Virus record (IMG/VR): IMGVR_UViG_3300014962_000003 | Coordinates: 1 to 29,503 of that record | Length of the DNA stretch: 29,503 nucleotides | Strand: one strand, 5' to 3' | Source: a virus | In this document: positions 9,909 to 28,763 of the stretch, piece by piece | How the letters are laid out: each line of letters opens with the position of its first letter | Position numbering within the stretch: position 1 is the stretch's first letter | Position numbers and translations under genes: made by a program | The notes under the pieces: model-generated | The model's database searches: none | The model's input: the letters and a program-made list of their open reading frames with translations, nothing else | Told to the model about the DNA's origin: nothing

Positions 9909-11216
9909 GTGCCTTATTACATTGAGCAGGGTTGTGATGGTAAACCGGAATGGTGGGCTGTCAAAGATATTGCTGGCGAACAGTTCGGATGCCACGCGAC
10001 TAAACAGGATGCTATTGACCAGGGTGTTGCAATTTCGCTTGCCGATAATGAGCCTTTTCTAGGCGAAAATAAACCTGAAGATCGTAATGCTGATGGTGAA
10101 CCGATTATTGTCTGCGATATTGATGGCACTCTTATTCAGGGCGGGGCGCGGGTTGAGCGTGTTTGGTCTTATGTTGAGGATGCTGAGGGTGCGCTGTTTA
10201 TTGTGACTGGCCGGCCTGAGAATGAACGGTCTGATACTGAAAGCCAGTTGGCTGACCTTGATATTGAGTATTCACGGCTGATTATGAATGATGGCTCTAC
10301 GGCGGATAGTGCCGAATATAAGAAAGCTACGGCCGAGAAGCTGCTTGAGACTTATGATGTTGTTTTGGCTGTCGAGAATGATGCTAAAACTTTGCGCTAC
10401 TATCGTGAGCTTGGCATTGATGCTGTAGACCCTGCCGATATTCCTGCAACAGCTTCGGCTGGTAAACTGGGCAAGTACCGTTCGAAGGATGAATTAGTGA
10501 ATAAGTTTGAAACTCGTATTAGTGCGGCCGAGTTTGAGGTTCGTGAAGAAGCTGATGGTATGCACTTCAGCGGCTATGCTGCCGTTTTTAATTCTCCTTC
10601 TGAGCCGCTACCGTTTACTGAACGGATTGCTCCTGGCGCTTTCAAGCGTTCACTTCGCGCCCGTAACGACATTAAGCTTTTATGGAATCACGACACTAGC
10701 GAGGTTTTGGGTTCTACTCGCGCTAAAACTTTGAGCCTGTTTGAGGATGAGCGTGGTTTGCGTGTTGAGGCTATGTTGCCGAACACTCAGCGGGGTCGTG
10801 ATACTGCCGAGCTGTTGCGTCGTGGCGATGTAGATTCTATGTCTTTCGGTTTCTCGGTTATCAAAGATTCTTGGTCTGCTGACGGTAACGAGCGCACACT
10901 TAATTCTGTTCGTTTGCATGAGGTTTCGGTTGTGGCTTTTCCGGCTTACAGTGCGACGGCTGGCACAACTTCTGTCCGTTCGCTTGATAAAGTTGCGACT
11001 CGTGCCGAGGTTGACGCTGATCAGCTTGCGGCTGCCCTCGATAAGATTGAGGCGGGCGAAGATATTACGCAAGATGAGCGGACTATTCTTTCACAAGTGA
11101 TTGATAAATTGTCGCCTGAACTTCATCTCGAGCCTGAACCAGAGCAGGGTGATGTTGCTAATCTTGGTTTGTTGGCTTTGAAAAAGAAGCGTCTTGAAAT
11201 GCTTAAGGGCATCTAA
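9909..11216 (+). CDS. Fusion protein: DUF2188-like N-terminus, HAD (Pnkp-type) phosphatase domain, HK97-family prohead maturation protease, and a C-terminal coiled/targeting tail.
   Basis: GTG start after the AGGAAAG Shine-Dalgarno. HAD motifs: IVCDIDGTL, FIVTGRPE, EYKKATAEK and LAVENDAKTLRYYRELGI. Protease motifs: FSGYAAVFN, LLWNHD, VLGST, SMSFGF and EVSVVAFPAY. Confidence 0.75.
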   Translation: MPYYIEQGCDGKPEWWAVKDIAGEQFGCHATKQDAIDQGVAISLADNEPFLGENKPEDRNADGEPIIVCDIDGTLIQGGARVERVWSYVEDAEGALFIVTGRPENERSDTESQLADLDIEYSRLIMNDGSTADSAEYKKATAEKLLETYDVVLAVENDAKTLRYYRELGIDAVDPADIPATASAGKLGKYRSKDELVNKFETRISAAEFEVREEADGMHFSGYAAVFNSPSEPLPFTERIAPGAFKRSLRARNDIKLLWNHDTSEVLGSTRAKTLSLFEDERGLRVEAMLPNTQRGRDTAELLRRGDVDSMSFGFSVIKDSWSADGNERTLNSVRLHEVSVVAFPAYSATAGTTSVRSLDKVATRAEVDADQLAAALDKIEAGEDITQDERTILSQVIDKLSPELHLEPEPEQGDVANLGLLALKKKRLEMLKGI

Positions 11217-11572
11217 TGGATATTGAAGAATGGGATTTGCTCAACGAGCGTCAACAAGAACAAGCTGAAAATTATACAGAACTTGTTTTGAAGTTCGATA
11301 TGTTCGATCAGTCGTCTGGTGCTGATGGGGCGCATTATGCACCGGCTGATAAAAACCCTTTTAAGGCTGATGGTTTGATATGCCAGAATTGTGTTTTCTT
11401 TAATGAAGAAAATAATCAGTGTCAGATTGTTGCGGGCATGATTGAGCCTGAGGCTGTTTGTAAACTTTGGATTATTCCTGAAGCGTCTATTGTTTCTGCT
11501 CAAGCTAGTGCTGACGCTATGCGTAAACTTGATATGAAGCGGCGTAGATTGGATTTGCTGAAAAGCATTTAG
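11216..11572 (+). CDS. Cys4 (putative metal-binding) head-assembly-region protein.
   Basis: TAATG coupling. CQNCVFFNEENNQCQIVAGMIEPEAVCKLW gives C-x2-C-x9-C-x13-C. The C-terminus MKRRRLDLLKSI parallels the protease C-terminus. Confidence 0.55.
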   Translation: MDIEEWDLLNERQQEQAENYTELVLKFDMFDQSSGADGAHYAPADKNPFKADGLICQNCVFFNEENNQCQIVAGMIEPEAVCKLWIIPEASIVSAQASADAMRKLDMKRRRLDLLKSI

Positions 11573-11582
11573 GTTACAGATG

Positions 11583-11620
11583 CCCTCGGTTTTCCTTTCG
11601 GCCGGGGGTATTCTGTTTTT
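11583..11620 (+). terminator. Hairpin plus interrupted T-tract (weak terminator candidate).
   Basis: ccctcgg / ccggggg 7-bp stem (one G:U pair), then tattctgttttt. Confidence 0.4.
11609..11614 (+). promoter_or_regulatory. -10-like TATTCT upstream of the tmRNA-like element.
   Basis: ggTATTCTgt. The hexamer ends 7 nt before G11622, the first base of the acceptor stem. Confidence 0.3.
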
Positions 11621-11621
11621 A

Positions 11622-11701
11622 GGGGCTGAATAGGTTTCGAAGATATGTAAAACCCCACGAGGGCAACTGTCTGACGCGAGTTCGACTCTCGCCAGCTCCA
11701 C
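11622..11701 (+). ncRNA. tmRNA-like tRNA-like domain (mini-tmRNA; acceptor and T arm only, no mRNA-like domain).
   Basis: GGGGCUG pairs with CAGCUCC (7 bp, with a G3:U pair), then discriminator A. T arm is GCGAG-UUCGACU-CUCGC. The 5' GGGGCUGAAUAGGUUUCGA and 3' GACGCGAGUUCGACUCUCGCCAGCUCCAC resemble the conserved tmRNA termini. No anticodon arm can be drawn. Confidence 0.65.
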
Positions 11702-11727
11702 TGAATACTGAGTATATATATTCGGGG

Positions 11728-11733
11728 TATACT
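11728..11733 (+). promoter_or_regulatory. -10-like TATACT upstream of the major capsid gene.
   Basis: ggggTATACTgt lies in the 250-bp intergenic gap, about 90 nt upstream of ATG 11824. Confidence 0.3.
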
Positions 11734-11823
11734 GTAAATGTCGATGTGAGTAAGCTCTGCGATTTCCTTTTTAGGTTGAGTGTAAGCACCGCCGACAAAT
11801 CAAACTATTTGGAGTTATTTCTG

Positions 11824-28472: not shown

Positions 28473-28503
28473 GCCCGCCGCGAAGTGGAAGCTTCCGACG
28501 GGC
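28473..28503 (+). other. Imperfect stem-loop. Could be an I-shaped terminator, an attenuator or a protein-binding site.
   Basis: gcccgccgcgaag-tggaag-cttccgacgggc gives 11 pairs with one mismatch and one bulge. No T-tract follows. Confidence 0.3.
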
Positions 28504-28526
28504 TGACCAGCTAACAAGGAGCTGAT

Positions 28527-28763
28527 ATGCCTAGCATACCTATAAACACAAGCCGACGCGATACGGCTCTACAATATCTCGCATTATCTGCCCGCAAACT
28601 CAGCGAGGCGACAACACTCGAACAGTCTCTTATTGAGGCGAAACAGCGGCTGCGTTATATTCAGCTTGCAATAACTCACGGATGTACCGAGAACGAGCTG
28701 CGAATGGCGCTTGGAGTATCGGTACAACACTTGCGCGAACTTGTTGCACTCGAGGTGAACTAA
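28527..28763 (+). CDS. Small HTH-like DNA-binding protein.
   Basis: AAGGAG Shine-Dalgarno. C-terminal TENELRMALGVSVQHLRELV looks like a helix-turn-helix. Its TAA overlaps the initiator ATG. Confidence 0.5.
   Translation: MPSIPINTSRRDTALQYLALSARKLSEATTLEQSLIEAKQRLRYIQLAITHGCTENELRMALGVSVQHLRELVALEVN

Follow-up and report, generated by a model that had tools for sequence, protein, structure and literature searches.

A phage gene for a tag-less, tRNA-like-domain-only tmRNA and its virus-borne family

Results

A mini-tmRNA gene precedes the major capsid gene

The window analysed here is the whole stretch of 29,503 nucleotides at positions 1-29,503 of the IMG/VR record IMGVR_UViG_3300014962_000003, and all coordinates below are window coordinates unless another accession is given. 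PHROG scans showed a complete-looking siphovirus genome that carries all its genes on the + strand. Besides the genes tabulated below, the scans identified helicase, exonuclease, HNH endonuclease, small and large terminase and portal genes, two glycosyltransferases, connector and tail genes, a peptidase/lysin, a RecE-like exonuclease, two DNA methyltransferases and RusA. Neither an integrase nor a repressor was found among the 40 window ORFs scanned against PHROG, and no SmpB or other translation factor was found among the ORFs of the window. The protein genes around the locus under study are the following:

9909-11216, + strand, head-maturation protease (PHROG scan)
11216-11572, + strand, 118-aa four-cysteine ORF
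11824 (ATG), + strand, start of the major capsid protein (PHROG scan)

A 251-nt gap, with the four-cysteine ORF upstream and the capsid gene downstream, holds an 80-nt RNA gene. An earlier reading of the bare letters (the sequence-only reading) had placed it there, in a genome that it took to lack an integrase, and both statements held. The parts of the element are as follows:

11622-11701, + strand, whole mini-tmRNA gene (tRNA-like domain only, tag-less), 80 nt to C74; from Rfam, the family model R1 and homologues
11622-11628, + strand, 5' strand of the acceptor stem, GGGGCUG, with G3 at 11624; from the sequence, pairing with CAGCUCC over 7 bp including G3:U
11629-11640, + strand, linker AAUA and D-loop analogue GGUUUCGA (11633-11640), with no D stem; from the Rfam alignment to the consensus GGaUUCGA
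11641-11648, + strand, 5' strand of the P2 helix, namely AGAUA (11641-11645), a bulged U and GU; from the MFE fold
11649-11652, + strand, A-rich internal loop AAAA between P2 and the cap hairpin; from the family consensus uAAAaCC and the Rfam alignment to the GAA internal loop of tmRNA P2
11653-11663, + strand, cap hairpin CCC-CACGA-GGG closing P2; from the MFE fold
11666-11675, + strand, 3' strand of the P2 helix, AC..UGUCU (UGUCU at 11668-11672), then the GAC junction; from the fold and the family counts
11676-11692, + strand, T arm GCGAG-UUCGACU-CUCGC; from the sequence and the family pairing
11693-11701, + strand, 3' strand of the acceptor stem CAGCUCC (11693-11699), discriminator A (11700) and C74 (11701); from the sequence

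The Rfam tmRNA model (RF00023) matched 11622-11703 with 59.3 bits (E 5e-21; gathering score 47), and the match covers model positions 1-374, with the 294 internal positions of the pseudoknots and tag region replaced by 7 nt. Our family model R1 gave the element 83 bits. This full-span match with its internal region missing supports the claim that the phage encodes a tmRNA tRNA-like domain (TLD) without an mRNA-like domain, and every proposed part was confirmed on the sequence, that is, the acceptor with G3:U, the discriminator A, C74 alone of the CCA, the T arm, the D-loop analogue and P2 with its CCC/GGG cap. Among the searches suggested along with that claim, Rfam matched above the gathering score, and ARAGORN called 0 genes and no tag on the element.

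What identifies the element as tmRNA is the score above gathering, the 7-bp acceptor with G3:U, the discriminator A, the T arm and a D-loop analogue without D stem. A canonical tRNA it is not, with neither a D stem nor an anticodon arm, and the Rfam clan competition was won by tmRNA, not tRNA. An mRNA-like region with resume codon and tag frame is absent, only 35 nt lying between the D-loop analogue and the T arm, and so are pseudoknots PK1-PK4 or replacements for them, the fold showing a single capped helix. The cap hairpin takes the position at which full-length tmRNA goes on into P2b, PK1, the tag and PK2-4. In the window the first P2 pair has A20 instead of the usual C, compensated by U51, and the junction reads UGAC in place of the GGAC usual in the family. 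At the 3' end C75 and A76 are not encoded and UG comes after C74, so that the RNA would depend on host 3' processing and CCA addition. The single-sequence MFE fold equals the drawn structure, and its stability is unremarkable for the composition (z -1.44); the structure is significant by its covariance-model score and by the covariation seen among relatives. Together with the relatives described below, these results identify the element as a gene for a phage tmRNA tRNA-like domain, neither an attP scar nor a chance match.

The RNA gene is inserted between a terminator-like hairpin and the capsid promoter

The remainder of the gap carries these signals:

11579-11620, + strand, terminator-like hairpin (11579-11612) and U-tract of the upstream gene, also in capsid relatives without the RNA gene
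11608-11613, + strand, TATTCT, within the tail of the terminator U-tract and 7 nt before G1
11728-11823, + strand, promoter and leader of the capsid gene, a flanking framework outside the RNA, common to relatives with and without the element
11728-11733, + strand, TATACT, -10 box of the capsid promoter
11745-11760 and 11775-11793, + strand, two direct leader motifs
11811-11814, + strand, GGAG, ribosome-binding site (RBS) of the capsid gene

Capsid relatives without the element keep the terminator hairpin and U-tract, a TATACT-type promoter, two copies of the leader motif, the RBS and the capsid gene, indicating that the RNA gene in the window is an insert between the terminator (11579-11612) and the capsid promoter. 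In the viral locus L055 the terminator-like hairpin is conserved together with the element. The TATTCT that had been noticed as a -10-like box does end 7 nt before G1; its reading as a dedicated -10 box is ambiguous, because the terminator tail that contains it is also found in relatives without the element. No unambiguous promoter was found for the window element. A TANNNT box lies 6-9 nt before G1 in 31/116 family members among the matches listed, an enrichment that is real but partial, and a box in about a quarter of the members would be compatible with some of the RNAs having promoters of their own and others being cut out of longer transcripts.

The element belongs to a large family with covarying stems

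The nearest cultured relative of the window phage is Pontimonas phage phiPsal1, which is lytic and without sign of integration according to its authors (PMC6106888). Its genome carries an unannotated, syntenic homologue right upstream of the capsid gene, scoring 54.6 bits with the Rfam tmRNA model; the T stem of this homologue differs wholly in sequence from that of the window and yet retains its pairing. Viral sequences were then scanned with three patterns. The first, a short-form pattern with 24 specified bases, was found in at least 120 viral contigs, giving 94 distinct sequences of 65-93 nt; the second, in which the acceptor stem was left free, gave at least 120 loci, of which 110 sequences were counted; and the third, with the D-loop analogue in the GGAUUCGA form, gave 35 more loci of the same architecture. 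The homologues thus comprise phiPsal1, mycobacteriophage DS6A (see below) and more than 150 distinct viral sequences, one of which, at locus L278, has the cap hairpin CCCCACGAGGG, of the same type as in the window. The linker is 3-6 nt long across the family among the matches listed, and this variation made a plain MAFFT alignment of the 94 copies misplace the 5' acceptor strand; position-anchored counts and a covariance-model alignment were used instead.

By these counts, among the matches listed, all five T-stem pairs are paired in 94/94 sequences with up to 4 pair types, at positions that were free in the search pattern, and acceptor pairs 5 and 6, counted without any fitting, are paired in 93/94 and 92/94 with four pair types. 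Pairing over the first seven pairs of P2 reaches 93% in the 94 sequences listed, compared with 31-49% when the partner is slid, and at the first of these pairs C:G, U:A and A:U alternate across the family. In the covariance-model alignment of 100 distinct sequences among the matches listed, 95.9% of the cells are paired versus 42-51% after sliding, 20/23 pairs show double-sided changes, and the covariation score is 0.744 versus 0.07-0.15, with 0/500 shuffles at the observed value. The T arm is 100% paired in these 100 listed sequences, helix 3, the cap hairpin, is 87% paired with double changes at 3/3 pairs, and acceptor pairs 1-3 are invariant while pairs 4-7 covary. Stem covariation in relatives had been set beforehand as a check on the element, and it was borne out by these double changes and this pairing among the matches listed.

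The end of the acceptor behaves differently from the rest of the stem. In the search that did not specify the acceptor, G1:C was present in 109/110, G2:C in 106/110, G3:U in 107/110 and A73 in 109/110 of the sequences listed, whereas pair 4 showed six pair types in the same 110 sequences. G1:C, G2:C, G3:U and A73 make up the AlaRS identity set, and their fixation next to a variable pair 4 is a signature of selection on the alanine identity set, as expected if alanylation matters. Thus the G3:U pair, singled out by the sequence-only reading as the AlaRS identity element, and the discriminator A are selectively conserved among the matches listed. C74 is always encoded ("AC" present), and the full ACCA in only 25/110 of the listed sequences. 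The most conserved parts of the family are the D-loop analogue, the T loop and the GAC/GGAC junction.

We found no conserved tag frame: a GCN-to-stop frame is present in 26/97 interiors among the matches listed, compared with 28 +/- 4 in shuffles. The frame GCA-ACU-GUC-UGA, which had been pointed out as a possible mini-tag buried in the P2 stem of the window element, is by this measure a chance occurrence, such frames being no commoner than in shuffles.

The element is accessory, mobile and almost wholly virus-borne

Linkage to the capsid gene was followed in 80 viral contigs picked by capsid similarity to the window alone (52-83% identity). The element was present in 11/80, in ten about 120 nt upstream of the capsid ATG and in one downstream of the capsid gene, and the closest capsid relatives of the window are without it. 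Its absence from 69/80 capsid relatives indicates that the element is dispensable, an accessory gene. Conversely, the RNAs of the window and of L055 are identical at 73/80 positions, with all seven differences in P2 or loops, whereas the two capsid proteins have 45% identity and the sequences upstream cannot be aligned; conservation of the RNA goes well past that of its genomic surroundings.

Among the 94 loci listed, the downstream neighbour is a capsid gene in 16 and a helicase or primase gene in about 10, and upstream neighbours among the matches listed are exonuclease, HNH endonuclease or protease genes. At most of the loci listed the element lies on the strand of its neighbours. Contexts are highly heterogeneous, and no consistent neighbouring protein gene was found among the loci listed; integrase was not among the 25 commonest neighbour families on either side in the matches listed. 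Capsid adjacency as a family trait was rejected on these counts (16/94 loci listed; 69/80 capsid relatives without the element), and with it falls the specific link to late gene expression that the capsid-adjacent position had suggested. In several loci an ORF of 391 aa has its end exactly at the element; these ORFs were considered as integrases and rejected, no integrase family being among the commonest neighbours, and they are probably the six upstream neighbours that match exonuclease phrog_284, like the 389-aa exonuclease of the window.

Same-strand tRNA genes lie within about 120 nt of the element in 16/60 sampled loci among the matches listed, often only 1-13 nt apart, and some elements are inside tRNA arrays of up to 28 tRNAs. 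In the Streptomyces phages LuckySocke, BRock and pSt2308, the element occupies an unannotated gap after the tRNA-Val of a tRNA array and scores 76-80 bits.

A pattern search over the genomes of 185,579 cellular species gave 16 matches, of which 8 are true short forms, compared with at least 120 loci in each of the two main viral scans. Five of the eight true copies come from Actinomycetota, and the neighbourhoods include terminase, protease, tail and HNH genes. The other 8 of the 16 (from Treponemataceae, Rectinemataceae, Shapirobacteria, cyanobacteria and one Bacteroidota) were rejected, having no matching 5' acceptor strand. Taken together, these results show that the family is an accessory, mobile, almost wholly virus-borne gene.

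The element is a further member of the DS6A type

The kind of RNA described here is already known through mycobacteriophage DS6A, and the interest of the window element comes from the breadth, conservation and virus restriction of its family. DS6A was classed as "TLD only" by Hudson, Lau & Williams 2014 (PMC4131195), and the 2025 tmRNA database paper gives it as the phage example of the CDS-less form, besides jakobid mitochondria and two plastids (PMC11915505). As relayed by these two papers, the DS6A element reportedly inhibits tmRNA on expression in E. coli (Mao et al. 2009 RNA Biol 6:355, via PMC4131195 and PMC11915505), and the inhibition is described as independent of chargeability (Mao et al. 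2009, via PMC4131195). The host of that assay, E. coli, is a heterologous one.

With a structure-based script we located the DS6A element at 28478-28557 of JN698994 (80 nt), where Rfam gave no match at its gathering threshold. Model R1, which was built without DS6A, matches DS6A 28478-28558 over positions 1-80 of 80 with 67.6 bits (E ~8e-13), and the DS6A cap hairpin with its A-rich lead-in, AAAACCGCACGCGG, is the commonest version in the viral contigs among the matches listed. The neighbours of the element are gp33 and the DNA polymerase III gene, the integrase gene is some 10 kb away, and DS6A integrates at tRNA-Lys-CTT, not at ssrA (PMC10865867).

The two elements share a length of 80 nt, a 7-bp acceptor with G3:U, a D-loop analogue, a P2 of about 7 bp, an A-rich loop, a T arm and an AC end without CA, and both have a small cap hairpin, CCGCACGCGG in DS6A and CCCCACGAGGG in the window. 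Both are phage-borne and intergenic, that of DS6A far from the integrase and that of the window in a genome without one. They differ in the D-loop analogue (GGUGGUCGAC in DS6A, GGUUUCGAA in the window) and in their Rfam score, which is above gathering for the window element but below it for that of DS6A. The phages differ as well, DS6A being temperate on Mycobacterium and the window phage an integrase-less relative of a lytic Microbacteriaceae phage; and while an inhibition experiment has been reported for DS6A, the window element is known from its sequence. The 67.6 bits on the family model and the same order of parts indicate that the window element is a homologue and a further member of the DS6A type. 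The novelty of kind that the sequence-only reading had implied is lost with this homology, a TLD-only phage tmRNA having been described as early as 2009. How large the family is seems not to be reported in the 2014 and 2025 papers on DS6A cited above. BLAST matches of the 3' half in other mycobacteriophages, e.g. MrMagoo, were considered as short forms and rejected; these are full-length, unannotated tmRNA instead.

Discussion

Comparison with other tmRNA and tRNA-like systems

The tRNA-like domain of full-length ssrA tmRNA (RF00023), whether bacterial or that of Bxz1-like mycobacteriophages and MrMagoo, is homologous to the element from end to end, and its partners AlaRS, SmpB and EF-Tu are presumably those of the element too. 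The full-length RNA has PK1-PK4, a resume codon and a tag ORF, whereas the element has none of these, which makes the messenger half of trans-translation impossible. The parts retained are those that AlaRS, SmpB and EF-Tu recognise in full-length tmRNA, and the parts lost are those that supply the template.

Engineered TLD constructs share the design of the element, with acceptor, T arm, D-loop analogue and a capped P2a, and are alanylated and bind SmpB; an example from SmpB/EF-Tu/ribosome biochemistry and crystallography is reportedly the construct of Bessho et al. 2007. Another is the TLD-only tmRNA of Shimizu & Ueda 2006, which accepts peptidyl transfer in vitro (as cited in PMC3895274). 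These are laboratory truncations, whereas the element is natural and selected, with a conserved A-rich loop and cap hairpin. Natural tag-less tmRNAs are found in organelles: jakobid mitochondria keep them together with SmpB (Jacob et al. 2004, as given in PMC11915505), and two genes of about 65 bp are described from Mallomonadaceae plastids (PMC11915505). By their description, the organellar RNAs likewise hold little beyond the tRNA-like domain and are presumed to work together with SmpB and to add no tag. They arose by reductive evolution of a resident essential gene, whereas the element is an accessory, horizontally moving viral gene whose hosts keep the full tmRNA. The element often shares arrays, strand and tRNA-like spacing with phage tRNA genes, and probably their processing enzymes; phage tRNAs decode, but the element, without anticodon arm or D stem, cannot.

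Proposed function and alternatives

The best explanation, to which we give about an even chance of being right, is that the element encodes a minimal tmRNA acting as a competitor that can be alanylated, binds SmpB and makes trans-translation end without a tag. From the sequence we infer that the RNA is expressed, charged and bound by SmpB and that it benefits the phage. The RNA would be transcribed from its own start near G1 or by read-through and trimmed like a tRNA, and its CCA would be completed by a host enzyme. Host AlaRS would put alanine on it by way of G3:U and A73; host SmpB and EF-Tu would bind it, and host tmRNA would face a rival for SmpB as well as for the ribosomes that stall on non-stop mRNAs. 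With no template in the RNA, an accepting ribosome would add at most one alanine and no degradation tag, and infected cells would lose tmRNA-directed tagging and the associated decay of stalled-translation products. The proximity to tRNA genes in 16/60 of the listed loci and the tRNA arrays of the Streptomyces phages count in favour of tRNA-like expression. Against the explanation count the ambiguous promoter, the CCA end left to host enzymes, the unremarkable fold stability, the absence of the element from most capsid relatives, and the need of some phages for trans-translation, which makes a gain from blocked tagging less evident. The DS6A result in E. coli, together with peptidyl transfer to TLD-only tmRNA in vitro (Shimizu & Ueda 2006, as cited in PMC3895274), makes each step of the mechanism plausible, and the earlier hypothesis of a decoy or non-tagging rescuer, being consistent with both by analogy, appears reasonable. 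An inhibition that is independent of chargeability, as described for DS6A, leaves the strict conservation of the AlaRS determinants unexplained.

A beneficial tag-less rescuer, of the kind proposed for the tmRNA of jakobid mitochondria, would share the entry steps of this mechanism. Charged RNA and SmpB would accept the nascent chain and the peptidyl-RNA would be released or hydrolysed, which would give more ribosome recycling during late translation and spare phage proteins. The strict AlaRS identity set and perfect acceptor end argue for charging, and so for reaching the peptidyl-transferase centre, and phage tRNA genes, amid which the element is often found, are usually taken to boost translation. 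The in-vitro peptidyl transfer to the TLD, in the form in which it is cited (PMC3895274), as well as the jakobid mitochondrial tmRNAs kept with SmpB and the two plastid cases (PMC11915505), point in the same direction. However, the sole experimental report, on DS6A in E. coli and as relayed by later papers, is one of inhibition. No mechanism is known to us by which a peptidyl-TLD could be released from the P site when there is no stop codon. Rescue therefore seems to us unlikely, if still a serious candidate.

If the RNA were a pure SmpB sponge, sequestration of SmpB would suffice and charging and ribosome entry would be irrelevant. This agrees with the D-loop analogue, T loop and GAC/GGAC junction being the most conserved parts, but leaves the near-invariant G3:U, G1:C, G2:C, A73 and C74 unexplained while neighbouring acceptor pairs change freely. 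Such strict conservation of charging determinants argues against a pure sponge, which we regard as improbable.

More doubtful again is a role as a decoy or substitute in phage-host conflict, where the RNA would, for example, soak up a host nuclease or defence system directed at the acceptor and T arms of tmRNA or tRNA, or draw in tmRNA partners such as RNase R. Its co-occurrence with tRNA arrays and the RNA ligase genes of DS6A and BRock would suit this role, as would the tRNA and tmRNA fragments that serve an anti-CRISPR protein in staphylococcal phages (PMC11662646), but no consistent neighbouring protein gene was found among the matches listed, and what is conserved belongs specifically to alanylation and SmpB recognition; the chance of this role is small.

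The position of the element between a terminator-like hairpin and the capsid promoter, with neighbours on the same strand at most loci, would also allow a tRNA-like punctuation or stabiliser, that is, an RNase P/RNase Z site or a 3' cap for adjacent mRNAs with no part in trans-translation. We consider this very improbable: a conserved promoter and leader serve the capsid gene both in relatives that have the element and in those that do not, genomic contexts are very heterogeneous, and any tRNA-like fold would do for punctuation, yet tmRNA-specific features and the AlaRS identity are kept.

Integration into ssrA is found in many temperate phages, which carry the 3' end of that gene. A remnant of attP or of imprecise excision of host ssrA, or a decaying pseudogene, is nevertheless almost certainly the wrong account of the element, for although its BLAST search matches ssrA 3' ends in enterobacterial prophages, the element has the 5' acceptor half, the D-loop analogue and an exact internal deletion, the stems covary strongly, so that the copies are not verbatim ones, an integrase is missing from the window and from the commonest neighbour families in the matches listed, phiPsal1 is described as lytic (PMC6106888), and DS6A integrates at tRNA-Lys with its element about 10 kb from the integrase gene, so that the earlier judgement of attP as an unsatisfying explanation was borne out.

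The alanylatable, SmpB-binding competitor can be extended from the window to the whole family in a bolder proposal, which we offer tentatively and hold to be rather doubtful. Virus-restricted, alanyl-accepting tmRNA heads of about 65-93 nt would be spread by phages as an "anti-tag" RNA, would enter stalled ribosomes with host SmpB and would end trans-translation without a degron, by block or by tag-less rescue; they would then be a widespread, unrecognised counter-measure to bacterial quality control.

Annotation and meaning

The Rfam tmRNA model placed 16/20 other family members tested above its threshold, and ARAGORN missed family members or mis-called them as tRNA-Glu, tRNA-Arg or tmRNA with a spurious tag. 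Phage tmRNA surveys based on ARAGORN miss or mis-call these genes. In the GiJojo record a hypothetical protein is annotated over the element match.

All bacteria have trans-translation, which is a drug target, and to our knowledge its handling by viruses has barely been explored. The present results turn an oddity known from DS6A since 2009 into a large, structurally constrained and almost virus-confined family that keeps its alanine-charging signals, a testable class of viral small RNA. Cultured Streptomyces phages and phiPsal1 carry unannotated copies, and LuckySocke (on S. lividans), BRock and DS6A are tractable systems. If the "anti-tag" reading is true, the family would provide a natural minimal system for ribosome release after template-less peptidyl transfer.

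Unannotated and mis-annotated mini-tmRNA genes in phages

The mini-tmRNA, a short tmRNA lacking a tag, recurs as an unannotated gene in cultured Streptomyces phages with genomes of about 113 kb, where it lies 3′ of tRNA-Val within the tRNA arrays. In GiJojo, a hypothetical-protein CDS is annotated over the BLAST match to the mini-tmRNA.

Mini-tmRNA copies in cultured Streptomyces phages
LuckySocke: mini-tmRNA, L305 1501-1579 (OR725497 17977-18055)
BRock: mini-tmRNA, L306 1491-1569 (NC_048650, about 97142-97220), minus strand
pSt2308: mini-tmRNA, L307 1501-1579 (PV588686 33356-33434)
GiJojo: candidate mini-tmRNA, PP725410 17025-17103, BLAST match

RNA ligase genes are also present in the mini-tmRNA carriers DS6A (gp76, RtcB-like, L173 301-1503) and BRock (gp168, annotated 'RNA ligase', L306 3024-3069, adjoining the tRNA array).

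In viral contigs, ARAGORN mis-called the short forms at L043 1991-2081, L086 1899-1981 and L044 5905-6228, and the wrong labels given to some short forms were tRNA-Glu, tRNA-Arg, or a 324-nt tmRNA with the invented tag peptide AWDYNPMWVQCSA*. Contig L043 also carries a match to RAGATH-24 RNA (871-1073; 54.1 bits, gathering score 45.3), about 1 kb 5′ of its 65-nt mini-tmRNA. At the 3′ end, C74 is encoded in essentially all copies of the family (position 11701 in the window), while C75 and A76 are usually absent and the full ACCA is encoded in 25 of the 110 family sequences. This conserved first C of CCA may be a 3′-processing determinant.

Divergent, full-length and cellular forms

The tRNA array of Mycobacterium phage MrMagoo (NC_053515) contains both a tmRNA and a GOLLD RNA, neither of them annotated. 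In Microbacterium phage Eden (NC_048017), the space separating tRNA-Asn from tRNA-Gln has no annotation and is taken up by an 89-nt tRNA-like element.

Other structured RNAs in phage tRNA arrays
MrMagoo: full-length tmRNA, 101.5 bits, L171 2188-2531 (about 57334-57677)
MrMagoo: GOLLD RNA, 182.4 bits, L171 3131-3548 (about 58277-58694)
Eden: 89-nt tRNA-like element, L172 2439-2527 (about 40182-40270)

The Eden element has a 7-bp acceptor stem, the G3:U pair and the T arm, with a divergent middle; it matched the covariance model of the family weakly (31.7 bits) and was not detected in the Rfam search. It may represent a second, divergent type of short tmRNA.

Among the matches to the short-form pattern in cellular genomes, those in MAGs of Rectinemataceae, Treponemataceae and Shapirobacteria (L258, L262, L265, L266 and L267) and in cyanobacteria (L257 and L260) span about 45-55 nt from the D-loop analogue to the T arm, and a matching 5′ acceptor strand is absent directly upstream in each of them. 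Each of these loci may be a tmRNA gene of permuted or unusually compact form.

Head-maturation protease and capsid-gene leader in the window

At its N-terminus, the head-maturation protease (window 9909-11216; Peptidase_S78 at residues 209-363) has a HAD-type phosphatase domain (Pfam Acid_phosphat_B, 29.9 bits; cutoff 27). The PNKP phosphatase domain and 'polynucleotide kinase' families of PHROG were matched more weakly. A phosphatase domain joined to a prohead protease is an unusual fusion.

In the leader of the capsid gene, a motif of about 17 nt occurs twice in direct orientation between a -10-like TATACT and the RBS.

Capsid-gene leader (window 11728-11814)
11728-11733: -10-like TATACT
11745-11760: leader motif, copy 1, TGTGAGTAAGCTCTGC
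11775-11793: leader motif, copy 2, GTTGAGTGTAAGCACCGCC
11811-11814: RBS GGAG, 3′ of both motif copies

Every relative inspected, with or without the mini-tmRNA, has the promoter and the doubled motif ahead of its capsid gene. The doubled motif region may be an operator or leader element of the late genes.
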